Shown here: positions 18,426-46,132 of the stretch, in pieces
Layout of the letters: each line of letters starts with the position of its first letter
Numbering within the stretch: the first letter of the stretch is position 1
Source of the DNA: an uncultured Gemmatimonadales bacterium
GTDB taxonomy: Bacteria; Gemmatimonadota; Gemmatimonadetes; Gemmatimonadales; GWC2-71-9
DNA length: 64,000 nt
Direction of reading: 5' to 3'
Assembly: GCA_963739455.1 (NCBI GenBank)
Contig: CAVUAK010000001.1
Span: forward strand, 1,536,001-1,600,000
Program-made: the position numbers and the translations under genes
Notes under the pieces: model-generated
Seen by the model: only the letters and a program-made list of their open reading frames with translations
Told to the model about the DNA's origin: nothing
The model's database searches: none

Positions 18426-18436
18426 GCCAAGCCCTT

Positions 18437-20997: not shown

Positions 20998-20998
20998 C

Positions 20999-25113: not shown

Positions 25114-25115
25114 CG

Positions 25116-26255
25116 TTACGCCTCCACCTCGCGCCCAAGACTTTCATAGCAGGCCACCCATCGGGCCGTCGCTGCGCGTGCAGTGAAGTGCTCCAGAACC
25201 TCAGCCCGCGCGTTGTCGCTGAGCTGGAGTGCCAGCTCCGGGCAATCGAGCAGTCGGCATGCTGAGTCGGCCAGCCCACTCGCATCACCGACCGTGACGA
25301 GGAGCCCAGTGTGACCTTCGTGGACCAATGAGGGGATGCCGCCCGCGTCCGTCGACACGACTGGTAGCCCTGCGGCGAATGCCTCAAGGATCGACAGGGG
25401 GACATTATCAATCGCCGACCCGTTCAGGAAGATTTCGGACTCGCCATAGAGGCCGTCCATGTCCTCGGGACGCACCGGACCGGTGAAGCGGACGTGCCTC
25501 AAGCCGAGAGCAGTGGCTTGGTGGCGCAACTGCTCACTGAGCGAGCCATGTCCGGCGACGATCATTTGTGCGTCCGGATGGCGCGTCTGAATCAGCGCAA
25601 AGGCGGATATCACATCTGCTACGCGATACAGGGACTCATGGTTACGGTTGACGATGAAGCGCGGCTGCACAGCGGCGCGACGCCGATAAGTGACGTGCTC
25701 AATCTCGACGAAGTTGGGCGCCACTTCCGCGCGGAAACCGAAACGTGCGAATACATCAACCAGGTATCCGGACGGAACAACGATGCAATCGGCCCATCGC
25801 AGCGCGCGACGCATCAGCCACTCCCATCGGGTGAGGTGATCCTCCGCCTCGCCGCTGTGATAGTTGAGGAGAACCCGCTTCCCATGGCGCCGCGCGGCCA
25901 GCATCGCTGGCAGGGGTGCCAGTACGAATGACCAGTAGCTCGCCGAATAGGCGTGGATCACATCGTACAGGGGCACCGACTCCCGAAGGGACCAGGCATA
26001 TGCCAAGCTACGGGCCGCAGTCCGGAGGTACTTGATCCTGCCCAGCGGGGCGAGCCAGCCAGTGAGGTCTGGATCGACTGGCAGAAAGCCGGCAGAGATG
26101 GCGCCCGAAGCCTCCAAGGCCCGTCGGAGCCGCTCGAGCTGCACCGCTTGGCCGCCGAGGTAGCGCAACGACGGCCCGACCAGCAGCACCCGGAGCGGCC
26201 GGTGATCGGCGCGACCGGTCAACCCTAGTGCCCCATCTAACTGCTTGTCAAGCAT
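25116..26255 (-). CDS. Glycosyltransferase family 4
   Basis: GGQAVQ, NYHSGEA, DNVPLSILEAFAAGLPVVSTDAGGIP. Start set at MLDKQ. Confidence 0.85.
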   Translation of the reverse strand: MLDKQLDGALGLTGRADHRPLRVLLVGPSLRYLGGQAVQLERLRRALEASGAISAGFLPVDPDLTGWLAPLGRIKYLRTAARSLAYAWSLRESVPLYDVIHAYSASYWSFVLAPLPAMLAARRHGKRVLLNYHSGEAEDHLTRWEWLMRRALRWADCIVVPSGYLVDVFARFGFRAEVAPNFVEIEHVTYRRRAAVQPRFIVNRNHESLYRVADVISAFALIQTRHPDAQMIVAGHGSLSEQLRHQATALGLRHVRFTGPVRPEDMDGLYGESEIFLNGSAIDNVPLSILEAFAAGLPVVSTDAGGIPSLVHEGHTGLLVTVGDASGLADSACRLLDCPELALQLSDNARAEVLEHFTARAATARWVACYESLGREVEA

Positions 26256-26323
26256 GGTGTTGCGCACGGTGCCCTGAGAGTGGCGAAGCTGTCGTAGGGG
26301 AGCAGGAAGTGTGCCCTCCATTA

Positions 26324-27376
26324 TCAGTCCGGGGTCGCAGAGAAGCTCCACCGCGGACGCCTCGCCAGGTGCGCGAGCCCATTTACCCATGCCCGGAATG
26401 CGCCCTCGGACTGTCGCATCGTGTCAATGAAGCGCGGGAGGAGCAACTGGGGATCGCCAGGCGTGCCCAAGCCGGGCACGCAGGTTGTGGCCGTCTCAAT
26501 CCCCTCGGCTTCGAGCCAGGGAAGGAACTCCGGGCGGTGCACTCCGCTGGGATAGCAGAAATGTCTCGCGGTTGCTCCCACGTTCTGCGTGAGCCAGTTG
26601 CGGTTGTCACGAATCTCACGGCGGAAGAGCTGTTCGTCCCTGGGCGTCCGGTGACGGTGTGTGTGCAGTTCCATCGCGTGCCCGGCGGCCACAACATCTC
26701 GCATCTCAGGTCCTGTCATCAGGTGAAAAAGGCGGTCGCGTAGCAGCTCGTCGTAGTCTAGCGAGAGTCGCCCGGCCAGCTGCGCGTTCAGCGAATCCTT
26801 CTCTTCCGCCGTAAGCGCTGACCGCTCCGCGTGCGACCGAAGGGTTGCCAGTACCACGGCCCGCCCGGCCTCGGACCGAAGGCTGGCCGCGGCCTCGAGG
26901 CCCACCTCGCGCCATGACGGAAGCGTCTGGCCTCGGCCCCGCCACAGGAGGTACGAGGTAGAGGGACCGAAAACCGGTCTCTGGTAACTGGCGTAGTAGG
27001 TGCTCGCGTAGTTGGTCGCCGGATAGTTCCGCTCCGCGAGAAGTGGTAGCGCCCTTGAATGAAAATCGAAGTTCCCATCGTCAAACGTGATCACGACGGC
27101 ACGCGGTGGAAGGGTTCCTGCCCGGAGCGCCGCCGCACCCTCGTCCAGCGACATGACATTCGCGTGCTCTTCCGCCAGGATCGTCAGGCGCCGCCGCAAG
27201 AACGTCGGCGAGATGTAGAGCTCTGGCGACCACTCATGCTCGTCGCGTTGCGAGACGCCATGGTAGCAGAGCACCAGCAGGCGCTGCGTTCGCCATGAAC
27301 TCCGGCCGATTGCCCGCGTCAGGCCCACAGCTTCGCCGATGGCAAAGGCGCCAGCCTTGATCCCGCCCATCGTCAC
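26324..27376 (-). CDS. Polysaccharide deacetylase (CE4/NodB-like)
   Basis: LCYHGV, ITFDDG, HTHRH, FCYPSG, LPRF. Confidence 0.88.
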   Translation of the reverse strand: MTMGGIKAGAFAIGEAVGLTRAIGRSSWRTQRLLVLCYHGVSQRDEHEWSPELYISPTFLRRRLTILAEEHANVMSLDEGAAALRAGTLPPRAVVITFDDGNFDFHSRALPLLAERNYPATNYASTYYASYQRPVFGPSTSYLLWRGRGQTLPSWREVGLEAAASLRSEAGRAVVLATLRSHAERSALTAEEKDSLNAQLAGRLSLDYDELLRDRLFHLMTGPEMRDVVAAGHAMELHTHRHRTPRDEQLFRREIRDNRNWLTQNVGATARHFCYPSGVHRPEFLPWLEAEGIETATTCVPGLGTPGDPQLLLPRFIDTMRQSEGAFRAWVNGLAHLARRPRWSFSATPD

Positions 27377-28524
27377 GTCGATCGTTCCATCGTCGCGCCG
27401 GTCAGCCTGGCGTACACTTCGGTAAGCGTGCCGATCGTCGCCTCGGCACGATAGCGCGCGAAGGCGACCGACCGACCGGTGGATCCAAGCTTCGCTCGCA
27501 GCATCTCGTCTCCAGCCAGCTCTCCCAGCTTTCGCGCGAGTTCGGCGGCATTCCCGGAGGCGACGAGCATGCCGGTCTCGTTGTCCGTCACGGCGTCTGC
27601 GACCCCGCCTACATCAGTGGCGATTGTCGGGCGACCGGCGGCCATGGCCTCGACAAGCGTATTGGGAAATCCTTCGCTCTCCGAGGTGAGGGCGGATATC
27701 TCCAGGAACTGGTGCGGGTTTGGCTGCTGTGGCAGCTGTCCCGTGAAGTGCACGCGGTCGCTGATCCCAAGCGCCGTGGAGCGGGCCTTCAACAGTGCAT
27801 GCTGACTCCCCTCACCCACGAGAACAAGGTGCAGACGCGGATCCCCCACGGCAGCTACCGCGTCCACTAGGCGCTCAAGTCGCTTGACCGGCTCGAGCCG
27901 GGCGACAGCACCCACCGCCACGGCATTGTCGGGAACGCCCCAGGACCGTCGGACACTCAATCGCTCCTGTTCGGTGACGCTGTCGAACGCGTGATCGTCC
28001 ACGAAGTTCTCCACGACCGCGATGCGCGCGTGCGCAACCTTGTCTTCGCGCTGGAGCAGGCCTGCGACCGCGGCACTGTTCGCGATCACACGGTGCGCGA
28101 AGCGATACGCTTGCCGGTTGATGTGTATGAGGCTGGGACGGGGAGCATGATGCCACCAGCGGCGGCTCGCGATGACACCTGGAACTCCGGCAACGCGTGC
28201 AATTGGGACCGCGAACACGTTCGAGTAGATATCGTGAGCGTGAAGAATCTGGACCCGCTCTCGTACCAGGTGACGTGCAAGGCCAAGCGCACGCACGCCG
28301 GTCGATGGTTGCATGAAGCCCGTAAGCCGGAAGCGAATGACCGGAATTTCCAGTCGTTCGTATCGTGCCAGCAGCGGACCATCCGGTCCAAGTACGAGCA
28401 ATTGGACCTCTGCGCCGGTACGTTGGATTCTCTCGGCCGTTCGCACGGCGTTCAGCTCCGTGCCACCCGGGCTCAGGCTGTCGACGCAGTACGCAATTCG
28501 GAGCGGCCGTCCCGAGTCATCCAT
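27373..28524 (-). CDS. Glycosyltransferase family 4
   Basis: GGTE, LHAHD, SEGFPNTLVEAMAAGRP, TDVGG. Start set at MDDSGRP. Confidence 0.88.
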   Translation of the reverse strand: MDDSGRPLRIAYCVDSLSPGGTELNAVRTAERIQRTGAEVQLLVLGPDGPLLARYERLEIPVIRFRLTGFMQPSTGVRALGLARHLVRERVQILHAHDIYSNVFAVPIARVAGVPGVIASRRWWHHAPRPSLIHINRQAYRFAHRVIANSAAVAGLLQREDKVAHARIAVVENFVDDHAFDSVTEQERLSVRRSWGVPDNAVAVGAVARLEPVKRLERLVDAVAAVGDPRLHLVLVGEGSQHALLKARSTALGISDRVHFTGQLPQQPNPHQFLEISALTSESEGFPNTLVEAMAAGRPTIATDVGGVADAVTDNETGMLVASGNAAELARKLGELAGDEMLRAKLGSTGRSVAFARYRAEATIGTLTEVYARLTGATMERST

Positions 28525-28580
28525 CGCGCGCCTACCCGACCTTCCAGTGAAGTTAGCTCGCAAAGTCGATCCGATATATT

Positions 28581-28596
28581 GGCAAGATCGGGACCG
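28581..28596 (-). promoter_or_regulatory. Candidate sigma54 -24/-12 promoter
   Basis: Minus strand CGGTCCCGATCTTGCC (GG-N10-GC with TTGC), 57 bp upstream of the start; near-identical copy at 62296-62311. Confidence 0.55.
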
Positions 28597-28642
28597 TTTG
28601 TGAAAGCTTTGCGGCAGTGATAGAAGCCACGGAAGTTGTTGA

Positions 28643-28658
28643 CGGCACAAGGCTTGCG
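28643..28658 (+). promoter_or_regulatory. Candidate sigma54 -24/-12 promoter
   Basis: CGGCAC-aaggc-TTGCG, close to the TGGCAC-N5-TTGC consensus. Confidence 0.55.
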
Positions 28659-28756
28659 CCCACAGTCACAAATCGAACCTGAAGGTGTGTTGCGGCGTCC
28701 TCTCGCGTGGTTGGGGCCGCAACGTAACCCATGATGGGGCCGCGGAGAGTGCGTCG

Positions 28757-30088
28757 ATGAACATCCTGCTCCTCACTGAAGTCTACCCTCCGGAGCCGGT
28801 GGTAGGATCATTTCGCGCTCAAAAGGTGGCCCTCGCGCTCGCACATGCCGGTCATCGGGTCTGGGTCGTTACCAACCATGCGGGAACGGGCGATGCGCTG
28901 CCGGAGCAGGAGGGCGTCACCCTGATCAAGGCCCCCCCCCGGCGCAGCCCGATTCAGGTAGCCGCGGCACTCCGCAGTCGTTTTCGAGCATTTCGCGGTC
29001 AGGTGCGTGGACGCTCGGAGAATACTGCGACTGGTCAAATGGCCAGTCTTGGTTCTGATCAGCAGTCCGCCCGGAAGCGGAGGGGACTCGTCGCTGAGCT
29101 GTTGAGTGTACCAGACGAGGCGCAGGGGCTCATTCCGTCACAGCTCGACGCGGTCACGTCACTGGATCGCACCGATTTCGATCTGGTGTATTCAACAAGT
29201 CCAAGCCATAGCGTTCAGATCGCGGCCCTGCTCGTGGCGCGGCGGCGTCGGCTGCCTTGGATCGCGGAGTTTCGGGATCCCTGGACTGACAACCCGGAGC
29301 TTCGCCTTGCGAGCCGGAGCGGTGTGGCGCAGGGGATCAATCGTTGGCTCGAGCGCTTGGTCTTTCGCAGGGCGTCGGCCATCGTCGCCGTGACCCGCGA
29401 TGCAGGCGACCTGTTCCGGCGGAAGCTCGATGGAGGCGATGTCAATAAGGTGCTGGTGGCGCTCAATGGCATTTCCCGTGTCGCGTCGTCCCGTCCGCCG
29501 CGAGAAGAGTCCGCGCCGTTGCGGCTCGTGTATGCCGGGTCGATTTATCCGCCGCGCACCGCCGTGCCGTTCATCGAGTCCCTGGCGCGAGTGCGGGATG
29601 CAGGGTTCACCGCCCCACTCGAATTGACTTTTGTCGGCGATTGCCGGATGTACGAGGGCATCAATGTGGAGGCGTTGTGCCGGGACCTCGGCCTCGGCGA
29701 CGTCGTCCGATTCCGGGATTGGCTGCCCCAGCAGGCCGCGCAGGAGCTCGTTGGTAACGCCGACCTGCTTCTGCTGCCCGCTCAGCGATGGGTGCATCAA
29801 ATACCGAACAAGGCTTTTGACTATCTCGGTTCGCGCGTACCGGTTATCGCCCTTTGTGAACCGGACAGCGAACTCGCAAGGCTGCTCAAGGCTGTCGGAG
29901 GCCATACTGTCGTGGAGCACCTTACTGATCTGGATACCGCCCTGCTCCACTCCCTGAACCGTGCGGGTGGTTCACGGGAGACGGTTGGGGATGACGCACT
30001 GCTGGCCGAGTTGACTGTTGAACTACAGATGCGGCGAGTGGTGGGACTCGTCGAGCGCGTTGCAGGGCGTTCAGGTGTCGGCATGTGA
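28757..30088 (+). CDS. Glycosyltransferase family 4 (paralogue of 2502-3875)
   Basis: TEVYPP, EFRDPW, YAGSIY, IPNKAFDYL. Confidence 0.85.
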   Translation: MNILLLTEVYPPEPVVGSFRAQKVALALAHAGHRVWVVTNHAGTGDALPEQEGVTLIKAPPRRSPIQVAAALRSRFRAFRGQVRGRSENTATGQMASLGSDQQSARKRRGLVAELLSVPDEAQGLIPSQLDAVTSLDRTDFDLVYSTSPSHSVQIAALLVARRRRLPWIAEFRDPWTDNPELRLASRSGVAQGINRWLERLVFRRASAIVAVTRDAGDLFRRKLDGGDVNKVLVALNGISRVASSRPPREESAPLRLVYAGSIYPPRTAVPFIESLARVRDAGFTAPLELTFVGDCRMYEGINVEALCRDLGLGDVVRFRDWLPQQAAQELVGNADLLLLPAQRWVHQIPNKAFDYLGSRVPVIALCEPDSELARLLKAVGGHTVVEHLTDLDTALLHSLNRAGGSRETVGDDALLAELTVELQMRRVVGLVERVAGRSGVGM

Positions 30089-30248: not shown

Positions 30249-31250
30249 GTGCCAAATACGGTGTCGACGGCGCAACTAGCAAAGCTTCCCGTCACGCGGC
30301 TATGGCTGTACGTCGGGCTTCTGGCGGTCGTGACGCTGGGCGCGGGGGCGTACGGATTGCGCCGTGACGGCATTTTCGCTTGCCAGGCCGCTGGCTACCA
30401 GTCGGGCAGGTATCTCTCGCTCTGCGATGCGGAGAGCTACGGGGACTACGATCATGGAGCCTTCTGGTTCGGGCTCGAGCCCGTCGCGAGTGCCCATGCC
30501 CAAGACGCCGAGGTGCTCTTTCTCGGGAATAGCCGCATGCAACTGGCGCTCTCAACCGATGTGACGGCTCGCTGGTTCGCCGGAGCGTCCGCCAGCTACT
30601 ACCTGCTCGGCTTCTCACACAGCGAAACCGTGAATTTCGTCGCGCCGTTGTTGCGCGCACTGCAGCCGCGTGCCAAGGTCTACGTGATCAACCTCGATCG
30701 CTTCTTCACCAAGGTGGTCACCGACCCTGCTCGCGTGGTCATGCGCGACGGTGCCGCGCCGGGGCGCTACAAGCAGAAGCGTGAGTGGCAGGTGCTGCAC
30801 CGCGCGACCTGCAGCCGGTTGCCTGCCATCTGCCGGGACGCGCCCGCCTTCTTTCGCTTTCCAGAGACCGGGGCGTGGATCGTCGCCGGCGGAGAGAAGC
30901 GCCCCAAGCCCACCTCCTACGCAGACGCGGTTGACGATGAGCTGCTCCAGGTCTATCTGGCAAACGGGGGGGATTTCATCTCGCATCTACCGGTACCTGA
31001 GGAATGTGTCCTCCTGACGATGGTGCCGACTGTTGGCACGCCGGTCGCAACCGGGGAGGCGTTTGCCGACTCCGTCGGGCGCCGCTTTGTCGCGCCGGTA
31101 CTCGACAGCCTCAACACCTTCGACCAGTCGCACCTCGACTCCGCCAGTGCCCAGCGCTGGTCCCAGGCCTTCTTCGACGCAGCAGGCCCGTTCATACAAA
31201 AGTGCCTCGCTGATGCGAGTGGGGTGCTGCCGACCCCGGATGCCCGCTGA
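30249..31250 (+). CDS. Membrane-anchored SGNH-like protein (DltD/AlgJ/AlgX-like)
   Basis: N-terminal TM helix, FLGNSR (GxS block) and FDQSHL (DxxH); coupled to the FkbH gene. Confidence 0.6.
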   Translation: MPNTVSTAQLAKLPVTRLWLYVGLLAVVTLGAGAYGLRRDGIFACQAAGYQSGRYLSLCDAESYGDYDHGAFWFGLEPVASAHAQDAEVLFLGNSRMQLALSTDVTARWFAGASASYYLLGFSHSETVNFVAPLLRALQPRAKVYVINLDRFFTKVVTDPARVVMRDGAAPGRYKQKREWQVLHRATCSRLPAICRDAPAFFRFPETGAWIVAGGEKRPKPTSYADAVDDELLQVYLANGGDFISHLPVPEECVLLTMVPTVGTPVATGEAFADSVGRRFVAPVLDSLNTFDQSHLDSASAQRWSQAFFDAAGPFIQKCLADASGVLPTPDAR

Positions 31251-33142
31251 TGCAGTGGCTGCCCCCATGTGCCGACGTGCGATCCGCATTGCACGAAGCA
31301 ATGGCCGCCCCGGAGGTCAAGCGTCTTGCCAAGCTCGCAGCATTGGCCGGCCACCGACTTAGCTACTTTGAGATTCTTCAACTCGACCGCGCAGTGTCGC
31401 GACTCGTTGCTGATCCGCCGACGGGCTGGGCGAGGGTTCGCTTGGCGATCATCGGATCGGCGACGCTCAATCATCTGGCGCCGGCCATCCGTGTCGCTGG
31501 ACTCCGGCGGCAGGTGCTCTTCGACACCTTTGTCGGCCACTATGGACAGTATCGGCAGGAGGTACTCGACCGCACGTCCGAGTTGCATCAGTTCGCGCCC
31601 GAGGTAGTGCTCCTGTCGCTTGGCGCGGGGCAGCTCGTCGGTAGCGTACCACTAGGAGCGACGTCGAGTGAGGCGGAATGTGCGCTGGGCACCGCGCTCG
31701 ACGAGTTGGGCCAGCTCTGGCGAAGCATCCAGCAATCACTGGGCGCCGATGTCATTCAACAGACATTCCTCGACGTGGCGGAGCCGGTGTTCGGCAGCTT
31801 CGAGGCGCGCGTGCCGGGGTCGGCGGCAAGCCTTACGGCACAATTGAATGCCCGGATCGCGGCGGCGTCGGCCACGGCGGGGGTACATCTCCTTGATATC
31901 GCTCGGCAGGTCCAGCGGGACGGACTGTCACGGTGGTACGACCTGTCCCGCTGGCTCCAGGCAAAGATGGAGATTGCGCCGTCTGCCACACCGATGTTTG
32001 GCGAGCTGGTCGCCCGTGTGATCGCGGCCCAGCGAGGCCTGTCCAGGAAGTGCCTCGTCCTCGACCTCGACAACACCTTGTGGGGTGGTGTCATTGGTGA
32101 CGATGGGATCGGCGGCATCGTGCTCGGTGAGGGGAGCGCGGCTGGCGAGGCACACCTCGCACTGCAACGCTACGCACGTCAGCTGGGCGAGCGCGGCGTC
32201 ATCCTGGCCGTTTGTTCGAAGAACGATCCCGCCATCGCAGAGGCAGCTTTTCGCGATCATCCAGAGATGGTGCTCCGGCCGCCAGATATCGCGGTCTTCA
32301 TCGCCAACTGGGAAGACAAGGCGGTGAACCTGAAGCGCATTGCGTCTCGACTTAACATCGGCGTAGACAGCCTGGTGTTTGTCGACGACAATCCGGCGGA
32401 GCGCGACCGGGTCAGGCAGGCCCTGCCGGGAGTAGCGGTGCCAGAATTACCGGGCGACGTTGCGGGCTATGTGGGGTGTCTCGCCGATGCAGGCTACTTC
32501 GAGGCGATTGCCTTTACCACCGAGGATCGGCAGCGCGGCGAACAGTATGCGGCCAACGCAGCTCGAGAGGCCCTGCTGGAAGCATCAGGCGGCATGGATG
32601 AATACCTGCGCAGCCTGGGCATGGTACTCGATCATGCACCCTTCCAGGATGTGGACCAGGCGCGCGTTACGCAGCTCATCAACAAGACGAACCAGTTCAA
32701 CCCCACGACGCGCCGCTACACCCAGAAGGAGGTATCCGCGGTGAGCACGTCGCCCGTTTGCCTCACACTGCAGCTTCGGCTCGCTGATCGCTTCGGTGAC
32801 AACGGGCTCGTGAGTGCACTCATCCTGCAGCCAGTCGAGGGACGGGCGGATCAACTCGAGATGGATACGTGGGTAATGAGTTGCCGCGTCTTCGGGCGCC
32901 AACTCGAGCACGAGGCGCTCAACCTGGTGGTGGAAGCGGCCCGTTCGCGCGGCGTAACGTCACTGCGGGCGGACTACCTGCCCACCGCAAAGAACGGCGT
33001 CGTCGGCGACCTTTACCCCCGTCTCGGGTTCCGCGCCGCGGAAGAGGTCGCGTCCGTCCCCGGGGCGACCCGGTGGGTCCTGGATCTGGCGGACTATGCG
33101 CCGCTGTCCAGTCACATTGTTCGCAAGGGAGGCTCGGCATGA
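31250..33142 (+). CDS. FkbH-like HAD-IIIC phosphatase / glyceryl transferase
   Basis: VLDLDNTLWGG, CSKND, FVDDNPAER, KTNQFN, DRFGDNG, MSCRV. Confidence 0.92.
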   Translation: MQWLPPCADVRSALHEAMAAPEVKRLAKLAALAGHRLSYFEILQLDRAVSRLVADPPTGWARVRLAIIGSATLNHLAPAIRVAGLRRQVLFDTFVGHYGQYRQEVLDRTSELHQFAPEVVLLSLGAGQLVGSVPLGATSSEAECALGTALDELGQLWRSIQQSLGADVIQQTFLDVAEPVFGSFEARVPGSAASLTAQLNARIAAASATAGVHLLDIARQVQRDGLSRWYDLSRWLQAKMEIAPSATPMFGELVARVIAAQRGLSRKCLVLDLDNTLWGGVIGDDGIGGIVLGEGSAAGEAHLALQRYARQLGERGVILAVCSKNDPAIAEAAFRDHPEMVLRPPDIAVFIANWEDKAVNLKRIASRLNIGVDSLVFVDDNPAERDRVRQALPGVAVPELPGDVAGYVGCLADAGYFEAIAFTTEDRQRGEQYAANAAREALLEASGGMDEYLRSLGMVLDHAPFQDVDQARVTQLINKTNQFNPTTRRYTQKEVSAVSTSPVCLTLQLRLADRFGDNGLVSALILQPVEGRADQLEMDTWVMSCRVFGRQLEHEALNLVVEAARSRGVTSLRADYLPTAKNGVVGDLYPRLGFRAAEEVASVPGATRWVLDLADYAPLSSHIVRKGGSA

Positions 33143-33381
33143 CGGAGGAGGAGATCCTTGAACGTTACACCCGGCTCTTGCGCGACCTGCTCTTGGATGA
33201 GTCGATCGTGCTGGGGATGGACACGCGCCGCGATGAAGTCACAGGCTGGGATTCCTTCACCTACGTGAACTTCATTGTCACAGCGGAAATGGAGTTCGGT
33301 GTCAAGTTCGGGGTGGCGGAGATCGAGTCCTTTGAGAATGTCGGTGCGGTCGTTCGCCGCACCAAGGCATTGCTCGGCTGA
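33139..33381 (+). CDS. Acyl carrier protein
   Basis: 80 aa acidic protein with GWDSF phosphopantetheine motif and EMEFGVKF; GGAGG RBS; ATGA overlap. Confidence 0.88.
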   Translation: MTEEEILERYTRLLRDLLLDESIVLGMDTRRDEVTGWDSFTYVNFIVTAEMEFGVKFGVAEIESFENVGAVVRRTKALLG

Positions 33382-35009
33382 TGCTCTTCAACAGCTACGA
33401 GTTCATCTTCGTCTTCCTGCCGCTTACACTGGCGTGCTACTTCTTGCTTGGTCGCCGGTCCCGGGGTGGGGCGCTGCGATGGATCATCCTGGCGTCGCTC
33501 GGCTTCTATGCCTGGTGGCGGCCGGTCAACGTACTGATTATCGCGCCTTCCATCCTCATCAATTTCGCCCTGGCGCGGATGCTTCAGCGCTTGGTGCGAG
33601 ATGGGCACGCGAGCAGGGCGCGGGCCGTGCTGATAGTCGGGCTCATCTTCAACGTGGCCTTCCTGGGCTACTTCAAGTACGCCAATTTTGCGACGGACGT
33701 CGTGAACGACGTGACGGGTACGAACTTTGTCTTGGCCCGAATCATCCTGCCGCTCGGCCTCTCGTTCATCACCTTCCAGAAGATTGCCTTCCTCATCGAC
33801 GTGCACGCCAGGCGCGTTGAGGAATTTTCGCTGCAGGATTACTGCCTGTTCGTCCTGTTCTTCCCGCAGCTGATCGCGGGTCCGATCGTGCACTACCGCG
33901 AGATGATGCCGCAGTTCCAGAAGCTTTCTGGGCGGCCCGAGCCGATGGACTTCGCGGTCGGCCTGACCCTCTTTGCCTTTGGTCTCTTCAAAAAGGTTGT
34001 TCTCGCCGACCGCATCGCACCGATGGTCAGCGAGATCTTCGGCCATGCGGCGACGGGGGCTCCTACCACGCTTCTGACGTCCTGGCTGGCGGCGATCGGG
34101 TTCACCTTCCAGATCTACTTCGATTTTGCCGGCTATTCCGACATGGCGCTCGGACTTGCCCGCCTCTTCGGCGTGCGATTCCCGCCGAACTTCGATTCCC
34201 CCCTCAAGGCGTCGAACATCGTCGACTTCTGGCTGCGCTGGCACATGACGCTGACGCGGTTCCTGACGGGCTACCTCTACAACCCGCTGGCGCTGGCGCT
34301 CACGCGGCGGCGGCTGGCGGCGGGACATGCTGGTCTGTTGGGCGGTCGCACGTCGGTCTGGGCGTTCATGCAGTTGCTCGTATTCCCCACATTGCTGACG
34401 ATGCTCGTCTCGGGGTTCTGGCATGGCGCGGGGTATCTGTTCCTGCTGTGGGGACTCCTGCACGGCGTCTACCTGTCCATCAACCACGCGTGGCGAATGT
34501 TTGGGGTCAGGCAATTCCGTGACAAGGCGCGCTATCTCCGCATCATGAAGCCCATCGGTTTCGCGCTCACATTCGGCTGTGTCGTTGTCTCGATGGTGAT
34601 CTTCCGGTCCGACAATCTTTTGTCAGCGCACTCGATGCTCATCGGGATGACGGGCCTGAGTGGTATCGCACTGCCCGATGCCATCCACAGCCGGCTCGGT
34701 CCACTGGCCGGCATCATGGACAAGCTCGGGGTAACGGGCAAGCTCGAAGTCGATGTAGACCTCCGGCTCATGGTGGTAAAGGTCGGCCTCCTCGGCTTCA
34801 TCGCGCTGCTTTGTCCGAATACCCTGCGCCTCATGGCGCGCTACGAGCCGGCGCTCGGCATCGGACCTGAGCCCACCGAGCGTCTGTTACGTTCGGGTCG
34901 CTTCGCCTGGCGCCCGTCCCTGGCCTGGGCACTCGTGGCGTGCGCGGTGATGGCGCTTGGCGTAATGCGGCTGGGCGGTCGGAGCGAGTTTCTCTACTGG
35001 CAATTCTAG
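33381..35009 (+). CDS. MBOAT family O-acyltransferase (AlgI/DltB-like)
   Basis: MLFNS, YFKY, LPLGLSFITFQ, FPQLIAGPI, QIYFDFAGYSDMA, FWLRWHMTL, SGFWHGA. Confidence 0.93.
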   Translation: MLFNSYEFIFVFLPLTLACYFLLGRRSRGGALRWIILASLGFYAWWRPVNVLIIAPSILINFALARMLQRLVRDGHASRARAVLIVGLIFNVAFLGYFKYANFATDVVNDVTGTNFVLARIILPLGLSFITFQKIAFLIDVHARRVEEFSLQDYCLFVLFFPQLIAGPIVHYREMMPQFQKLSGRPEPMDFAVGLTLFAFGLFKKVVLADRIAPMVSEIFGHAATGAPTTLLTSWLAAIGFTFQIYFDFAGYSDMALGLARLFGVRFPPNFDSPLKASNIVDFWLRWHMTLTRFLTGYLYNPLALALTRRRLAAGHAGLLGGRTSVWAFMQLLVFPTLLTMLVSGFWHGAGYLFLLWGLLHGVYLSINHAWRMFGVRQFRDKARYLRIMKPIGFALTFGCVVVSMVIFRSDNLLSAHSMLIGMTGLSGIALPDAIHSRLGPLAGIMDKLGVTGKLEVDVDLRLMVVKVGLLGFIALLCPNTLRLMARYEPALGIGPEPTERLLRSGRFAWRPSLAWALVACAVMALGVMRLGGRSEFLYWQF

Positions 35010-37138
35010 TGGCGAGTGCTCCCCGGACCCGGGATATCAAAGACGAAGAGCACCGATCCCGCTGCGATGGCGAGGCGCAACCTCCCGTCAACGCGGAAGA
35101 CAATTGGCGCGCCGCGGATGGGTGCACCGAGGTTGGCATGCCAGACCCGCTCCCCGCTCAGGGCATCGAGGGCGAAGAAGGTGTGACTCTGGCCCCCGAG
35201 GACAATCCGGTCCCCGATGGCGAGAAGGCCACCGGTGGTTTCGGCTCGATTCTCGAACGCGGGCGTTCTCCATCGAATGCGCCCCGAGGCGAGGTCGAGG
35301 CCTACGACCGAGAGCGGGCGGTTCTCACCCGGAATCGGCTGCGTGCGTCCGCCGGCGTACTGGCCGTCCTCGGTGAGGATCGTGGAGTCCCTAAAGAAGA
35401 TGGATCCACCCTCCTGGATGGCCACGAACATCAGGCCGAGTCGGCTGCTGTAGGTCGCTGGCCACCAGCTGGTCGCGCCGGCAATGCCGGGGTACACCGC
35501 GGCGCCCCGGATCGTTGGCCGTGATGAAGGACGGACCTTCGGTCGGCCCGATGGCTCGAAGCCGTAGTTCCAGGTCTGGCGCGTGAAGGGAGTCGCCCGG
35601 AGAAACTCTCCCGTCGTGCGGTCCAGGACGTAGAAGAACCCGTTCCGGTTGGCCCAGAGAAGCAGGGCACGGTTCTGGCCCTGCCAAGGAGCGTCCACAA
35701 GAATCGGGATCTGGCTGGCATCCCAGTCGTTCGCATCCGACGGCGTGAACTGGAAGGCCCAGCGAAGCTTGCCCGTGTCGATATCCAGGGCGATGGCGGA
35801 ACTGGTGTAAAGATTGTCGCCAGGGCGGACGTCGGGTGCGAAGCCGGGCGCGGGATTCCCGACGCCCCAATAGAGGAGCCGGCGCACCGGGTCGTACGCA
35901 CCGGGCACCCAGGTGGCTCCGCCGCGTGGCGCTGCGGCAGCCGGAGGCCAGGTCTCGCGCCCCGGTTCGCCTGCCTGGGGAAGGGTGTGAAAACGCCAGA
36001 GGCGTTGGCCGGTCCGCGGTTCGTAAGCATCCAGGAATGCGCTCGCTCCGAGGTCACCGCCCCCGACGCCGACTATGAGGTGGCCATCCACGACGAGTGG
36101 GGCGCTTGTGATGCTGATTCCGTCGGCGGCTTTGCCGACGGCCACATCCCATTGCTTACGCCCGGTGGCAAGGTCCAAGGCTATTAGGTGGGCATCCAGC
36201 GTGCCGACGAAGACGAGCGTGTCCAGCACGGCGACACCGCGATTACTGCGCGTGCAGCAGAGGCGTGGTGAGGCCATCGGCTCACGAGCGAACCGCCACA
36301 CGACGTTTCCGGTTCGCTGGTCGAGGGCAAGAACTTCCTGTGCCGAGGTAACGATCAGGAGCCCGCGTATCGCGAGGGGCGTTGTCTGTGATGGGGAAGG
36401 ATCGGCGGAGAACTGATGAGCCCAGAGGAGATGCATCTGACCCAGGGACTCGGTCGTGAGCTCTGGCACGTCGCGATTGCGCTGACCGGAAAATCCACCG
36501 GTGTAGCTCAACCATTCCGCTGTGTTGGTGTCCGCGCCGGCGAGCTCAAGCATGGTCACCGGAACCGCTTTCCGTCGGCCAGCCCCCGCCTCGCGGCCGC
36601 CGGGGTCGCGCTGCAGTTCGCGAAGGTAGGCGATGACCTTCCAGGTGTCGATGAACGAGAGGCCGGTCGGCGCCATGGCAGTCGACGGAATGCCGTCCTG
36701 CAGCACACGGAACACGGCCCAGTCATTTGCGCTGCGGTGTCGCGGACCCTCTGCGAGGGCCGGCCCATGACCGCCTTCCCCGCTCGAGCCATGGCACTGG
36801 GCGCAATGCGTCGCGAAGATCTGCCTGCCGGCGTCGGTTTCGGATGCCAGTTGGTCGGGCAGGGAGAGCGCGGCGCTCGGGTTGAGGCTATTCTCCAGAG
36901 CGGCCAGGTCAAAGCCACGCCGGGTCGTGAGGAGCTCGAGCAGTTCACGCGGGCGCACGCCGGGGAGTTGGCCCGCGAGCTTCAGGGCACCGAGATGAAT
37001 TCGGAGGCGGACTTTGGTTGGCGCTGCCCATCCGAGGATCGCGATGATCGCCAGCGCGAGCATGACCCAGCGCAGGCTCCGGAGTTGACGCTTGGGGCCA
37101 GAAAAAGTCGCCAGCGAACGGTCTCCGGTCTCGGTCAC
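35006..37138 (-). CDS. PQQ-dependent dehydrogenase with N-terminal cytochrome c domain
   Basis: TM anchor, CAQCH heme motif, LCC..NRG, GNPAP, GDNLY, DWDA, NRNGFFYVLDR. Start uncertain (37063-37246). Confidence 0.85.
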   Translation of the reverse strand: MTETGDRSLATFSGPKRQLRSLRWVMLALAIIAILGWAAPTKVRLRIHLGALKLAGQLPGVRPRELLELLTTRRGFDLAALENSLNPSAALSLPDQLASETDAGRQIFATHCAQCHGSSGEGGHGPALAEGPRHRSANDWAVFRVLQDGIPSTAMAPTGLSFIDTWKVIAYLRELQRDPGGREAGAGRRKAVPVTMLELAGADTNTAEWLSYTGGFSGQRNRDVPELTTESLGQMHLLWAHQFSADPSPSQTTPLAIRGLLIVTSAQEVLALDQRTGNVVWRFAREPMASPRLCCTRSNRGVAVLDTLVFVGTLDAHLIALDLATGRKQWDVAVGKAADGISITSAPLVVDGHLIVGVGGGDLGASAFLDAYEPRTGQRLWRFHTLPQAGEPGRETWPPAAAAPRGGATWVPGAYDPVRRLLYWGVGNPAPGFAPDVRPGDNLYTSSAIALDIDTGKLRWAFQFTPSDANDWDASQIPILVDAPWQGQNRALLLWANRNGFFYVLDRTTGEFLRATPFTRQTWNYGFEPSGRPKVRPSSRPTIRGAAVYPGIAGATSWWPATYSSRLGLMFVAIQEGGSIFFRDSTILTEDGQYAGGRTQPIPGENRPLSVVGLDLASGRIRWRTPAFENRAETTGGLLAIGDRIVLGGQSHTFFALDALSGERVWHANLGAPIRGAPIVFRVDGRLRLAIAAGSVLFVFDIPGPGSTRH

Positions 37139-37233
37139 TTTGGCCGTGCCTGCAAGTCCTGTTCCCGGTGTTTGTCGAATGGCATGCTGTTGAGCCCATC
37201 GTCCCGCCGTGCTGCCCGTGGGAGTGCGCACTA

Positions 37234-38460
37234 GTGCGCATCGCAATCCTCACGGCCGGATTTCCGGTGCTCTCCGAGACATTTATCGTTGACCACATTG
37301 TTGGGCTGTCGCAGCGTGGGCACTCCGTTGACGTCTACCCGTCGGAGCTGGTGCCCCATCAGGAAAGCGCGTGCGATGCGCAATGTACGGCCGCGATGCG
37401 GCTCGTTCGTCGGCCATCAAACGAAAACCTCCCTCCACATTCAAGGGCGGCCCTGGTTGGCCGTGCGTGGCTGAGTTGTTCCGCGTCCGAGCGGCGTGCC
37501 TTGACTTCTACGATCATGGAGGAATGGCGCGTTGGCGGTCGTGTGCAACTGCGAATCGCGACGCGGGCGGTCGCTTTCCTGCCGAGGCGCCGGTTCGACG
37601 TGATACACTGCCACTTCGGTGACATTGGAGAGAGGGCGGCCCAGCTCGCGCGCTTGGGCGTGCTCGATGGCCCGATCGTGACCTCCTTTCATGGCTATGA
37701 TGTCTCGTCGTTGCCTCGTGCTGTGGGTCCGAATCTCTATCGAGAGTTGTTCGTGCGAGGTGCCGCCTTTGTCGCGGTGAGCGGTCATGTGCGCAACAGG
37801 CTACTGCAGCTGAACGCGCCTCCGGATAAGACTCTCGTCATTCGGCTTGGGATTGACCTCGAGCGATTTCGTGTCACCGATACTCCGGGGAACGATGCTC
37901 GGCCGACGCGGCTGGTGAGCGTGGGGCGCATGGTTGACAAGAAGGGGCATGACACGGCGATACGTGCCGTGGTGCGGGCCCGCGCGCTGGGCGCCGCTGT
38001 CGAGCTCACGGTAATCGGCGACGGCCCCAAGCGCGCGGAACTGGAGGCGCTGATCGCGGAGCTCGACTGCAGTTCAATGGTGTCACTCCTCGGTGCGGCG
38101 CCGCGCGCCACCGTGCAGGAGGTGTTGGGTCGCTGCCATGCCTTCCTCATGGCCAGTCGGACCGCCGCCGATGGTGATCAGGAGGGGCTACCCGTCGCCC
38201 TGATGGAGGCTATGGCGCGAGGCCTGCCTGTGGTGGCAACGCGGCACGGTGCCATTCCGGAGCTGGTCGAGGACGGGGTCTCGGGTCTCCTCGCCGATGA
38301 AGATGATGTCGAAGGCCTGGCAACGAGCATTGCCAGACTGGCACGAAGCCCAAGTGAGCGCCGGACCATGGGGCGTGCCGCGCGCGTCGCGGTTTCACGT
38401 CAGCACGACGCGACCCGGCAACTCGACGAGCTGGAGCGCTTGTACCGGACTCTCGCATGA
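37234..38460 (+). CDS. Glycosyltransferase family 4 (WcaL-like)
   Basis: FPVLSETFI, HCHFG, SFHGYD, DGDQEGLPVALMEAMA. Confidence 0.88.
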   Translation: MRIAILTAGFPVLSETFIVDHIVGLSQRGHSVDVYPSELVPHQESACDAQCTAAMRLVRRPSNENLPPHSRAALVGRAWLSCSASERRALTSTIMEEWRVGGRVQLRIATRAVAFLPRRRFDVIHCHFGDIGERAAQLARLGVLDGPIVTSFHGYDVSSLPRAVGPNLYRELFVRGAAFVAVSGHVRNRLLQLNAPPDKTLVIRLGIDLERFRVTDTPGNDARPTRLVSVGRMVDKKGHDTAIRAVVRARALGAAVELTVIGDGPKRAELEALIAELDCSSMVSLLGAAPRATVQEVLGRCHAFLMASRTAADGDQEGLPVALMEAMARGLPVVATRHGAIPELVEDGVSGLLADEDDVEGLATSIARLARSPSERRTMGRAARVAVSRQHDATRQLDELERLYRTLA

Positions 38461-40037
38461 TCTCGAAACGCGACCGACTGGACCATGCGTTCCTTTCGGG
38501 CGTCGCCTGGCTCGGCACGCTTCGTTGGGCAAGCCAGATGTCGTCCTGGGTCATCACGATCTGGGTTGCGCGGCTCCTCGGTCCCTCTGCGTATGGGATC
38601 GCGGGGATGGCCATGGTCGTCATCGGCCTTGCCGCGGTGCTGGTTGACTTCGGGCTCGGTGCGGCCGTGATCGCGTTGCCCGAGCAGCAGCGTCGGGCCC
38701 AGCAGCAGCTGCATGGCGCCGCGATCATGCTCGGTGTGTTGGGGATGGGGGCGGTGGCTGCAGCAGGTCCGGCCGTGGGGCGCTTCTACGGTGACTCGCG
38801 CGTCACGAGCGTACTGGTATGGCTCAGTCTCACCTTCGTTGTTGATGGGCTGCGCACTGTCCCGGCCGCCATCCTGACGAAGCAGCTGAAATACCGTGCT
38901 GTTGCCATCTCCGAGCTCGCGCGAACACTCGTGGCCAACATCACCACGCTGGCCTGGGCGCTCTTCCATCCAACATACTGGGCGCTGGTCGCAGGTGCCC
39001 TGGCCGGCTCGGTCGCCGCCACCATCTCCATTCTCTTCCGAGACCCCATCAGGCCGCGCTGGCCTGACCTTCACGAAGCTGAGGAGGCGTTGCGGTACAG
39101 CCGGCGCCTGCTGGTCGGTCGCTTGGCATGGTACGGCTATACGAGCTCTGACGCACTGATCGCCGGCAAGCTGCTGGGTGCACCCGCACTCGGTTCCTAT
39201 TCCTGGGCGATGAACGTGGCCCTGCTCCCCTCGGAAAAGATTACGGCGATTGTCACGAGCGCCTCACTCGCCGCGTTTGCGGCCGTCCAGGATGATGTCG
39301 CGCAGTTGCGTCGCTACTTCAGCGGGCTAACGGCCGGGCTCTCTCTCGTGATGTTCCCGACGTGTGCTGGCCTCGCCTTGGTGAGTCCCGAACTCGTGCG
39401 CACCCTTGTTGGCGCGAAATGGGACGCGGCGATCGTCCCGCTGCAGTTGCTCGCGGTTTACTCCATCTTCCGTTCAGTCACGACATTGCTGTCGCAAGTG
39501 CTCAACGTATCCGGGCAGGCAAGGTTTACCATGTGGAACGGCTTGGCCATTCTCGCGGTGCTGCCTCCATGCTTTCTGGTCGGGTCACGACTGGCAGGAA
39601 TCAATGGCATCGCCGCGGCATGGCTCGTCACGTTTCCGCTGGTCGTCGGGCCAATCCTGTTTCGCACACTACGGACTGTAGAGATGCCGCTCTTGGGCTA
39701 CTTGGTCCTCTTCCGGCCTGCGGCGCTCTCCACCCTCGTCATGGCCATAGTCGTGTGGGTTGCTGGGCTGGCCCTCGCGACGCGGCTTGCCGAAGCGCCG
39801 CGACTCTTGGCCCTGTCTTCCCTCGGTGCCTTCACGTACGCGGCGTTCCTGTGGGGCGCCTTTCCCAATACCTGGCGCACCTACGCTGGCGTCGCTCGCC
39901 GGATGATCGGGTCCCTGCGCCCATCGGCGACACCGGGGCGTGTTCCCAATGAGGTGGGAGTACCGGGGTCAAGCGAACTCACATCTGGTCTCAATGTGGT
40001 GGGCGACACCGGGAAGGCAGAACAACCAGCAGCGTGA
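38457..40037 (+). CDS. wzx: Wzx-type oligosaccharide flippase
   Basis: ARLLGPSAYG, DFGLG, about 12 TM helices, GAKW; WzxC-like architecture. Confidence 0.8.
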   Translation: MISKRDRLDHAFLSGVAWLGTLRWASQMSSWVITIWVARLLGPSAYGIAGMAMVVIGLAAVLVDFGLGAAVIALPEQQRRAQQQLHGAAIMLGVLGMGAVAAAGPAVGRFYGDSRVTSVLVWLSLTFVVDGLRTVPAAILTKQLKYRAVAISELARTLVANITTLAWALFHPTYWALVAGALAGSVAATISILFRDPIRPRWPDLHEAEEALRYSRRLLVGRLAWYGYTSSDALIAGKLLGAPALGSYSWAMNVALLPSEKITAIVTSASLAAFAAVQDDVAQLRRYFSGLTAGLSLVMFPTCAGLALVSPELVRTLVGAKWDAAIVPLQLLAVYSIFRSVTTLLSQVLNVSGQARFTMWNGLAILAVLPPCFLVGSRLAGINGIAAAWLVTFPLVVGPILFRTLRTVEMPLLGYLVLFRPAALSTLVMAIVVWVAGLALATRLAEAPRLLALSSLGAFTYAAFLWGAFPNTWRTYAGVARRMIGSLRPSATPGRVPNEVGVPGSSELTSGLNVVGDTGKAEQPAA

Positions 40038-40067
40038 AGCTGGCTACGACGCGCCGCTGGCGCCGAC

Positions 40068-41312
40068 CTATCGAACGCGGGCGAGCAACTTGTTGCGATA
40101 CCTGTTGAAAGCATCGTGCCATGTGAAATCGCTCGTGACCCGCTCCCTTGCCTTAAGGGCCAGGTCGTGCTGTAGCGGTGGATCTGTCAAGAGCTGCAGG
40201 ATGGCGGCGGCCATGGCATGGGGATCCTCCGATGGAATGAGCACCCCCGTAACGCCGGGCACGATAATCTCGGGGATGCCTCCCACACGTGTCGCGATGA
40301 CGGGCACTGAGAAGTAGCCGGCCTCCAGCAACACGATTCCGAAGGGCTCCTGGCGGGAGCTCAGGACCATCAAAACCGCGCCCCTGATGGTGGCGAGAGC
40401 ATCGGGATGTTCGGCGTCCAATATGAATTCAACGGCATCGGTGAGTCCGAGGTCGCCCGCGAGCCGCCGCAATGCCTCAAGCTCAGGTCCGGACCCGCCT
40501 AGCATCGCCAGCCTGAGCTCGGTCTGCGTCTTCCGAACCTCAGCAAACGCGTTCAGGAGGATGTCGAGTCCCTTCTTTCGCTCAAACTTGGCCACGCTGA
40601 CGAGATAGCGGCTCCCTGCCAGGCGCGACGAAAGGCGCCCGCGCTCCACCTCCGCGTCCAGGCGCACGGGATCGATGCCGTTGTGAACAACTTCTACATC
40701 GTATTCGCGCCCCGCCGCCTCGAGGAGACGGCGACGCAAGTTGTCTGAACAGCAGGTAATACCATCTGCCGAGTGCAGGAGGAGCCGCCACCAGTACCGA
40801 ATAATGGCAGATCCAGTCTCGAGTTCCGTGAGGTCTGCTCCATGAAACGAGAGGATGAAGGCTCCCGCCGGGCAGGCGAGGCGGTAGGCCCAAAGCAGCG
40901 TGAGCGCGGACAGGTCGGGGAAATGCACATTGACCGCGGCGGGTCGGCTCGCCTGCAAAAGGCGAAAGAGCTTCCACCCTGCTACCGGGAGTCGGATGGG
41001 AAGCGTCAACAGGTGCCGCAGTGTCCGAGCGCTGTGCCAGGGGCTCACCCATCGTAGGTGCACATGTTCAACGCCATCATACCGCGAATGGACCGGATGT
41101 CCTGCTTCCCACTCGTTGAACAAGACGACGACCGTGGTGTCAGAGGCCCGCAATGCCTGTACTATGAGGTTGCGAAGCACCTCACTGACCCCACCCGGAA
41201 CATTCAGGCTCCATGGCGCGACGAGAAAGATGGTGGGTGGCTGCTGTGCGGTGCCTGGGCGGTTGTCCTGCGCGGGGACCGTACTGGAGCGCTCGTTGCT
41301 GGGCTGGGTCAA
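40068..41312 (-). CDS. Glycosyltransferase family 4
   Basis: PGGVS, SFHGAD, HNGID, EPFGIVLLEA, TRVGGIPE. Confidence 0.88.
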   Translation of the reverse strand: MTQPSNERSSTVPAQDNRPGTAQQPPTIFLVAPWSLNVPGGVSEVLRNLIVQALRASDTTVVVLFNEWEAGHPVHSRYDGVEHVHLRWVSPWHSARTLRHLLTLPIRLPVAGWKLFRLLQASRPAAVNVHFPDLSALTLLWAYRLACPAGAFILSFHGADLTELETGSAIIRYWWRLLLHSADGITCCSDNLRRRLLEAAGREYDVEVVHNGIDPVRLDAEVERGRLSSRLAGSRYLVSVAKFERKKGLDILLNAFAEVRKTQTELRLAMLGGSGPELEALRRLAGDLGLTDAVEFILDAEHPDALATIRGAVLMVLSSRQEPFGIVLLEAGYFSVPVIATRVGGIPEIIVPGVTGVLIPSEDPHAMAAAILQLLTDPPLQHDLALKARERVTSDFTWHDAFNRYRNKLLARVR

Positions 41313-41593
41313 ACAAGAACTCCTCTCACAGGCACCTGGCAGTCACGAACCCCTCGGATCTCGGTATACTATCGGGGATCGTCAGACCAAGCCAAACACT
41401 AACAGGGCGATGAGCTTAGGTCATGATCCGTGCCGTTGCTCCCCGTCCGTGCGCGGACCCAGTGACCGTCGGAGTTCCGTCTTGGCTGCCGTTTGGATGC
41501 ATCAGTTTTCGTGCCATACGTGGCGCATCCGCGGCATCTACCCATGACCGGGTTTCATTACCGATTTTTGCTGTGCCAAGGTCAGGTACTGAG

Positions 41594-42604: not shown

Positions 42605-42610
42605 CGCGCC

Positions 42611-42626
42611 GGGCATCAACCTTGCT
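42611..42626 (+). promoter_or_regulatory. Candidate sigma54 -24/-12 promoter
   Basis: GGGCAT-caacc-TTGCT, 48 bp upstream of wzm. Confidence 0.55.
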
Positions 42627-42673
42627 CGTAGCGTGAGTTTGTACCGTCGCCTTTCCTGGGAACCCATGGAGCC

Positions 42674-43468: not shown

Positions 43469-43470
43469 TC

Positions 43471-45959: not shown

Positions 45960-45998
45960 TCGACCAATTCATCCTGCGATAGGTGAGATTGCGCAAAA

Positions 45999-46014
45999 TG
46001 GCATGAAAGTCGCA
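45999..46014 (+). promoter_or_regulatory. Candidate sigma54 -24/-12 promoter
   Basis: TGGCAT-gaaag-TCGCA upstream of the GT2 gene. Confidence 0.45.
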
Positions 46015-46132
46015 CAGCAAGGTGGCCCTAAGATAGCTTCCTAAACCTTGATAGGGCTTCAGGTTGGGTCTGCGCTGTGACGGTGTGGCAACAGACCAGC
46101 GGACGCGACCTCCCGTTGGCGAGTGACAACAA

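Follow-up and report, generated by a model that had tools for sequence, protein, structure and literature searches.

We analysed a stretch of 64,000 nucleotides (hereafter the window) from an uncultured Gemmatimonadales bacterium (assembly GCA_963739455.1, contig CAVUAK010000001.1, positions 1,536,001 to 1,600,000; G000:C1:1536001-1600000 in our coordinates), whose genome is 84% complete. Four consecutive genes of this window encode an SGNH-fold protein (gene 1), a long FkbH-type loader (gene 2), a stand-alone acyl carrier protein (ACP, gene 3) and a membrane-bound O-acyltransferase (MBOAT, gene 4). The sequence-only reading of the window had proposed that these genes, linked by overlapping stop and start codons, form a Dlt-like route for the addition of glycerate to a surface glycan. 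The four open reading frames (ORFs; Table 1) were confirmed, and their junctions overlap as claimed, with TGATG at 31248-31252 and 33379-33383 and ATGA at 33139-33142, the latter with GGGAGG just 5′ of it. Promoter and terminator scans gave signals at chance level. The cassette is embedded in a glycan gene region covering at least positions 16000-62000 of the window, and the source genome contains one FkbH gene, three MBOAT genes and two phosphopantetheinyl transferase (PPTase) genes. The results described below show that the cassette is real and conserved; it most likely represents a variant of MBOAT-SGNH acylation, with features drawn from two known machines of cell-wall acylation.

Table 1. 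Cassette genes and surrounding features, in window coordinates.
Feature	Position	Strand	Description
Gene 1, SGNH-fold protein	30249..31250	+	333 aa; predicted extracytoplasmic acyltransferase; GTG as candidate start
Gene 2, long FkbH-type loader	31250..33142	+	630 aa; TIGR01686, FkbH_N (PF21211), HAD and Cys motifs
Gene 3, stand-alone ACP	33139..33381	+	80 aa; weak profile matches; Ser39 in WDS
Gene 4, MBOAT of the DltB/AlgI/PatA group	33381..35009	+	542 aa; PF03062; His348 conserved; Glu7 in first helix
FLYWQF hexapeptide, MBOAT C-terminus (residues 537-542)	34989..35006	+	FxYxxF acyl-Tyr shuttle motif
Upstream glycan genes, candidate acceptor pathway	16246..30088		Profile matches: O-antigen-ligase-like protein, UDP-sugar dehydrogenase, GT4 glycosyltransferases, AsnB amidotransferase, heparinase II/III-like protein, polysaccharide deacetylase
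Convergent quinohemoprotein	35006..37246	-	Transmembrane anchor, family-specific helical domain, cytochrome c, pyrroloquinoline quinone (PQQ) alcohol-dehydrogenase propeller
Downstream glycan genes	37168..47131		GT4 glycosyltransferases, Wzx flippase, ABC-2 permease, ATPase with Wzt_C, GT2 glycosyltransferase
Sugar-biosynthesis set, partial	50645..56153		DRL oxidoreductase, RfbF-like cytidylyltransferase (two matches, probably frameshifted), CDP-glucose 4,6-dehydratase piece, PIG-L protein

Gene 2 matches the FkbH model TIGR01686 with 292 bits, for a cut-off of 147. Its N-terminus is an SGNH-like FkbH_N domain, its HAD domain carries the motifs D272-x-D274-x-T276, K324 and D379-D380, and its C-terminal domain contains C545 in the motif MSCRV, a Cys that we take to be the carrier of the acyl group. 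Residue conservation was assessed in near-full-length homologues (64 FkbH, 68 ACP and 62 MBOAT sequences, the window's own included), partial or frameshifted copies being dropped. The SCRV motif is present in 64/64 FkbH homologues, and the HAD motifs and C545 are at least 97% conserved. No conserved His was found in the FkbH_N domain across the 64 aligned sequences, so this domain is probably non-catalytic. The Bacteroides fragilis protein BF1531 (PDB 3slr), which is uncharacterised, shares FkbH_N and HAD domains with gene 2 (residues 56-423, E 7e-67), whereas its structure lacks the Cys domain. Ser39 of the ACP is at least 97% conserved among the 68 sequences. In polyketide clusters, FkbH converts 1,3-bisphosphoglycerate to glyceryl-ACP (PMC7489565, PMC4979870). 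The TIGR01686 match, the intact motifs and the absence of an AMP-binding domain from all four cassette genes bear out the suggestion that FkbH stands here in place of DltA.

Gene 1 belongs to an unnamed family. It matched no Pfam or NCBIfam family, DltD and AlgX profiles included (E 0.01), and a PDB sequence search using its alignment gave no genuine match. Homologues are nevertheless abundant: 912 were found by a word-indexed search and 987 representatives at E <= 0.001 by an exhaustive search (about 990 clusters at 50% identity). An alignment that combined the query with 118 of the 119 other close homologues listed shows no variation at G93, S95, D292, H295 or six Cys. A second alignment took in more distant representatives, namely those 122 among 150 listed whose length is 280-400 aa; with the query it has 123 rows, of which 122 retain S95, 120 D292 and 121 H295. 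The AlphaFold model (pLDDT 94) has a single N-terminal helix, residues 13-37, that scores as transmembrane. In a wide fold search the best structural match was the CE3 esterase 2vpt (Z 12.3, rmsd 2.8, 154 residues aligned), with OatA (Z 10.9) and PatB (Z 9.8) among the others; nearly all of the 50 matches listed are SGNH or GDSL proteins by title. DltD, AlgX and AlgJ are absent among these 50, and kinship with them is still possible. Foldseek, suggested as a check, returned weak matches (best E 0.018, none at E <= 0.001), several of them SGNH esterases. The fold, the block I Ser (G93-N-S95) and the block V DxxH motif (D292-x-x-H295) place the protein among the SGNH proteins. Gene 1 thus has the SGNH fold expected of it and a conserved Ser95/Asp292/His295 triad, and is predicted to be a membrane-anchored extracytoplasmic acyltransferase, which gives its family a fold and a probable function. 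Tandem duplications of the family ahead of FkbH were observed in L007:10001-12213 and L012:5075-7258, recalling systems with two SGNH proteins such as AlgJ/AlgX.

Gene 4 matches PF03062 (E 6e-24) and is homologous to PDB 6bug (E 4e-33); it reaches 180 bits against the DltB equivalog TIGR04091, below the cut-off of 375. His348 is at least 97% conserved among the 62 MBOATs, and their C-termini carry FxYxxF in 59/62 cases and EFLYWQF in 55/62. In PatA the Tyr of FxYxxF is acetylated (PMC12148441), which together with the conservation of the motif supports the proposal that FLYWQF is a PatA-type shuttle. A model of the MBOAT in complex with gene 1 scored 0.81, the best of three controls reaching 0.15; of 157 solved complexes, 116 pass the mark applied to this score, as do 2 of 215 mismatched pairs. 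Contact agreement between runs was at least 83% and partner pLDDT at least 85. In the model, gene 1 touches MBOAT residues 2-10, 188-199 and 512-536 with its membrane helix, and these contacts with the first and last helices agree with the PatAB model described in the same paper. The pass may reflect a resemblance to known MBOAT complexes.

We scanned species-level genomes with the gene 1 alignment and obtained 123 relatives. Counts given per 80 loci refer to the best 80 of these 123; they include near-duplicates (L008/L009, L080/L081) and some pairs from one genome. The 80 loci come from Acidobacteriota, Gemmatimonadota, Nitrospira and alpha-, beta- and gamma-proteobacteria, and the cassette occurs across many uncultured soil and water bacteria. 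Although these loci were found via gene 1 alone, FkbH was present in 72/80, the MBOAT in 72/80 and the ACP in 69/80. Where at least 4.5 kb of downstream sequence was available, the complete four-gene set was found in 57 of 64 loci, so that the expected co-occurrence holds in several phyla. Gene order or orientation differs in some cases (L027, L034, L055, L059, L063) with the set still kept together; in L013:10995-12158, an acyltransferase-3 gene is inserted between the SGNH gene and FkbH. Pairwise distances were correlated for SGNH-FkbH (rho 0.69), SGNH-MBOAT (0.69) and FkbH-MBOAT (0.78), with 0/199 shuffles as high, in a sample where kin are not independent. Glycan genes accompany the cassette in 39 of the 50 loci of at least 15 kb, and Wzx is present in 19/80. 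No member of the gene 1 family turned up in plasmids or in a sample of 150 other genomes of the bacterium's own phylum. The cassette is therefore patchy and probably moves with glycan loci.

By analogy with known systems, the cassette could work as follows. In the cytoplasm, FkbH would take 1,3-bisphosphoglycerate, hold the acyl group on Cys545, remove the phosphate at the HAD site and load glycerate onto the ACP phosphopantetheine, as the chemistry of its family and its motifs suggest. Glyceryl-ACP would then dock on the MBOAT, whose His348 would pass the acyl group on to the Tyr in the MBOAT's C-terminal FLYWQF, on the pattern of PatA and DltB-DltX. The SGNH protein, whose membrane helix contacts the first and the last helix of the MBOAT in the model, would accept the acyl group on Ser95 and esterify a hydroxyl of a glycan from the surrounding locus. 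We consider it very likely that an ACP-fed MBOAT/SGNH chassis operates here. That it puts plain glycerate on a polysaccharide is probable, at a lower degree of confidence, the acceptor being inferred from gene context. The overall route of the proposed DltABCD-shaped pathway is thus supported; its shape is that of a Dlt/PatAB hybrid, since the MBOAT itself carries the shuttle.

With Dlt (DltA, DltC, DltB, DltX, DltD), the cassette shares a predicted carrier-protein thioester donor, an MBOAT, a Tyr shuttle motif and a membrane-anchored SGNH acceptor. In contrast to Dlt, its loader is FkbH and not an adenylating ligase, its shuttle is fused to the MBOAT, neither its SGNH protein nor its MBOAT is recognised by the corresponding Dlt model, and it lies in a glycan locus of the Wzx/ABC type. 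With PatAB, AlgIJFX and WssHI it shares the FxYxxF motif at the MBOAT C-terminus, the catalytic His and an SGNH partner with an N-terminal transmembrane helix; however, those systems use acyl-CoA, whereas here an ACP and a loader come with the cassette. According to a 2025 paper (PMC12148441), MBOAT-SGNH pathways outside Dlt have no carrier protein. If the glyceryl relay is correct, the cassette would be a widespread exception to this rule, its shuttle fused to the MBOAT. The FkbH and ACP units of tetronate and methoxymalonate polyketide pathways (PMC7489565, PMC4979870) have in common with the cassette the TIGR01686 domain, the HAD and Cys motifs and an adjoining stand-alone ACP; the cassette differs by its extra FkbH_N domain, the absence of FabH-like or dehydrogenase partners and the MBOAT that comes next. 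The Campylobacter jejuni flagellin glycosylation locus includes an FkbH-domain gene, cj1302, and its glycan bears dimethylglycerate (PMC7099621, PMC3068675). In that case the linkage is an amide on a nucleotide sugar (dimethylglyceroyl-pseudaminic acid; cj1295), the role of cj1302 is putative, and the accessible portions of these papers name no MBOAT or SGNH protein.

The MBOAT-SGNH-ACP chassis appears to take other loaders at other loci. A MaoC dehydratase with a short-chain dehydrogenase/reductase (MaoC-SDR) has homologues in 14/80 loci, of which 13 also have FkbH; in L032, L075 and L078 it sits between the ACP and MBOAT genes, a placement that ties the ACP cargo to glycerate chemistry. In DH-KR-FkbH starter modules, a dehydratase and a ketoreductase (DH-KR) lead from glyceryl- to lactyl-ACP. 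By analogy, MaoC-SDR would convert glyceryl-ACP to lactyl-ACP, and a lactyl cargo is predicted at such loci; nothing on the DH-KR lactyl route was found in the open-access literature. No MaoC-SDR homologue was detected in the source genome (tblastn, E 1e-8; 84% complete), so glycerate would be the default cargo here. In L082:10915-15784, a gene 1 homologue is accompanied by fused pyruvate dehydrogenase (PDH) E1, by E2, by a divergent MBOAT and by an ACP-like ORF, PDH E1/E2 replacing FkbH; this ORF is divergent and was recognised by eye, without a Pfam match. The source genome has a second carrier-fed set about 30 kb past the cassette (G000:C1:1602408-1607149; L085:3409-8150), made of an MBOAT ending in FIYAQF, an 86-aa ACP, an acetoacetate-CoA ligase above both NCBIfam cut-offs and an SGNH-like protein, and adjoining a Wzx-like gene. 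This set would load acetoacetyl or 3-hydroxybutyryl-type groups. The third MBOAT of the genome (G000:C1:1640920-1643255; L086:4690-7256) is split over several frames and divergent from a GDSL-like gene, with no ACP seen. Since the loader is exchangeable, glycerate is predicted for the window's copy only; if this is right, exchangeable loaders are drawn from polyketide starter chemistry.

Related gene sets were found outside the 80 loci. On plasmids of Paroceanicella and Niveispirillum (L168, L169), FkbH-ACP occurs without MBOAT, in the company of a methyltransferase, a VOC protein and mprF in one case and of a WcbI-type acetyltransferase and an SDR in the other. Sinorhizobium meliloti pSymB (L167:4669-9866, L170) carries an MBOAT, a 409-aa unknown protein, an ACP and FkbH, with the lsr operon on one side and genes for K-antigen export on the other. 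Aligned against the gene 1 family, the 409-aa protein gave a probability of 0.5%, which is no match. Knockout of this pSymB set would be an easy test of the pathway.

The convergent gene next to the cassette encodes a quinohemoprotein with CxxCH at position 148, a vicinal CC and D-W-D. It shares with PedH and the type II quinohemoproteins the propeller (closest to PedH), the vicinal Cys-Cys and the D-x-D metal motif, but it has the cytochrome c on its N-terminal side, following a membrane anchor and a helical domain, and it is tied to glycan loci. It scores 436 bits against TIGR04528 (acido-empty-quinoprotein group A), below the cut-off of 650. Its true start is probably downstream of 37246, GTG 37138 being a candidate. 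The source genome contains pqqC, as do 2 of 5 other genomes with cassette and PQQ gene, counting matches above cut-off in these incomplete genomes. PQQ homologues occur in 34/80 loci and lie at most 1.2 kb from the cassette in 28/80, on either side and either strand (for L056 the distance was taken from the locus scan, as a second FkbH match distorted the computed value). Among loci with 3 kb on both sides, the PQQ gene is found within 1.2 kb in 22/49 and is absent in 22/49. In a quick tree with only four outgroups, the 32 long PQQ copies form one branch (SH-aLRT 98), separate from the four other PQQ proteins of the genome. A reverse search with the PQQ alignment covered 79 metagenome loci from the best 80 of more than 600 matches, many on short contigs and some possibly from organisms shared with the first set. 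The family-specific N-terminal domain was present at 11/79 of these loci, and cassette genes at 5 of the 11 with this domain versus 0 of the 68 without it.

Co-inheritance of the PQQ gene with the cassette is weaker (rho 0.37, 0.34 and 0.16), and for the MBOAT 15/199 shuffles were as high. The gene also occurs at four loci without FkbH (L006, L052, L076, L082). It is indifferent to MaoC-SDR (6/14 loci with versus 28/66 without) and tied to a CDP-sugar/DUF4910/PIG-L set (16/20 loci with the set versus 18/60 without), parts of which are present in the window (50645-56153). The recurrent sugar set that travels with the PQQ gene comprises an RfbF-like protein, PIG-L, DUF4910/DUF2172, a C-methyltransferase, a DRL oxidoreductase and an epimerase; besides the window it was seen in L005, L007, L016, L026, L032, L062, L072, L117, L123 and L162. 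A DUF4910/DUF2172 gene occurs in 10/80 cassette loci, and Cj1295 of C. jejuni is presumably a member of this family. Some loci without the PQQ gene carry GSDH-type (5 loci) or GMC (4 loci) oxidoreductases, and one of the three enzymes is present in 34/50 long loci. We reject the PQQ enzyme as an obligate fifth member of the cassette, in view of its absence in 22/49 loci, its weaker co-inheritance and its stronger tie to the CDP-sugar set. Specificity for glycerate also finds no support, because MaoC-SDR loci are not avoided. The enzyme probably acts in the glycan pathway of the cassette, where its substrate may be an extracellular sugar or substituent. It is doubtful, though conceivable, that the cassette is one form of a modular ACP-fed acylation chassis of the envelope (glyceryl, lactyl, glycolyl/acetyl, acetoacetyl-derived) and has, in this lineage, a dedicated membrane-anchored PQQ/cytochrome c dehydrogenase as partner, which acts extracellularly on the glycan or the glyceryl ester. 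If so, the quinoprotein would tailor the surface polymer oxidatively and pass electrons to respiration, GSDH-type or GMC oxidoreductases substituting for it where it is absent.

Several observations weigh against transfer of glycerate to a polysaccharide by this relay. The ACP gives weak matches (PF00550, E 0.005; PRK12449, E 5e-7) and none to the DltC model. The characterised FkbH enzymes described in PMC4979870 and PMC7489565 belong to polyketide clusters, and the long form with FkbH_N could act on another substrate. FkbH is absent from 7/64 loci, four of which also lack the ACP (tblastn); among five tested genomes whose locus has no FkbH, four have it elsewhere. In the complex model, the FLYWQF tail and the catalytic residues lie outside the confident contacts. 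The best SGNH matches of gene 1 are esterases, and the fold cannot tell transferase from hydrolase. Eleven of the 50 loci of at least 15 kb lack a glycan gene cluster, as judged from a fixed gene list, and the window has both Wzx and ABC export genes, which point to no single acceptor. Finally, all 80 loci come from metagenome-assembled genomes, none from a cultured isolate by title.

The same relay might carry another cargo: phosphoglyceryl, lactyl, another short hydroxy-acyl group or a PQQ-oxidised glyceryl ester (tartronate half-ester or hydroxypyruvate), made by the long FkbH, by trans-acting enzymes or by oxidation of the ester after transfer. MaoC-SDR, PDH E1/E2 in L082 and the acetoacetate-CoA ligase of the second set show the kind of variation that this would involve, the PQQ gene is often close by, and FkbH_N has no assigned role. 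We nevertheless judge it unlikely for the window's copy, given the intact phosphatase motifs of the HAD domain, the lack of MaoC-SDR in the source genome and a PQQ gene that ignores MaoC-SDR and occurs without FkbH. Delivery of glycerate to a glycolipid, a lipid-linked intermediate, peptidoglycan or a protein glycan would suit the 11 long loci without recognisable glycan genes. Such acceptors have precedents: peptidoglycan and lipoteichoic acid are among the substrates of MBOAT-SGNH pairs (PMC12148441), and for the small molecule suomilide, acylation of a hexose by an MBOAT has been proposed (PMC13122637). With glycan genes in most long loci, Wzx in 19/80 and the window's cassette itself inside a glycan region, we consider this improbable.

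The cassette could also comprise two unrelated pairs, FkbH-ACP feeding a nonribosomal peptide synthetase-polyketide synthase (NRPS-PKS) downstream or a cytoplasmic sugar N-acyltransferase, and MBOAT-SGNH carrying out ordinary acetylation from acetyl-CoA. The sequence-only reading had noted that no PKS/NRPS is present in the window. A motif scan agrees, but a hybrid NRPS-PKS does exist 50-60 kb past the cassette, inside the extended glycan region (G000:C1:1621584-1632585; L176:4585-15586), with formyltransferase, adenylation, luciferase-like monooxygenase, PKS and thioesterase parts in several frames and a PPTase close by, which weakens the argument from absence. In addition, L006 and L052 have adjoining SGNH and MBOAT genes without FkbH or ACP, and in the plasmid sets, where no MBOAT is present, the neighbour of FkbH-ACP is a WcbI-type acetyltransferase in one case and a methyltransferase in the other. 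However, FkbH and ACP lie between SGNH and MBOAT with overlapping codons, the set is kept in 57/64 loci, the FkbH-MBOAT correlation is the best of the three and a PKS/NRPS motif occurs in 1/80 loci. The co-occurrence data thus favour the MBOAT over the NRPS-PKS as partner of the ACP, and two separate pairs are quite improbable. Least probable is that gene 1 is an esterase editing or removing an acyl group that the MBOAT transfers directly to the acceptor: its top fold matches are indeed carbohydrate esterases and no DltD or AlgX profile matches it, but it has a membrane anchor, docks on the MBOAT in the model and accompanies an FxYxxF tail that in PatA serves an SGNH acceptor (PMC12148441).

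The glyceryl relay bears on a gap in the genetics of bacterial glycans. In PMC5378307 the genetic basis of N-glyceroyl groups on bacterial glycans is called a major challenge, and gellan carries O-glycerate, in the L form (PMC9104527). The cassette is a gene-level candidate for such glycerate substituents. Searches of open-access full texts brought up no account of glycan acylation by an FkbH-ACP-MBOAT-SGNH pathway (supplements and subscription papers were outside the scope); the papers found that mention both FkbH and MBOAT deal with aeruginosin-type peptides, and no paper on gellan acylation genes was found.

Other genes of the window were noted in passing. The protein encoded at 44682-45959 (-) has no Pfam or NCBIfam match; its homologues occur in 7/80 cassette loci and also next to a PQQ gene in L088. 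The orphan at 41423-42604 (+) resembles a lipoprotein, and its C-terminal domain shares 48% identity with a portion of the Big_2 repeat protein encoded downstream (47183-50059, -). Further Big_2 proteins are encoded at 6353-9508 and 10008-14036.

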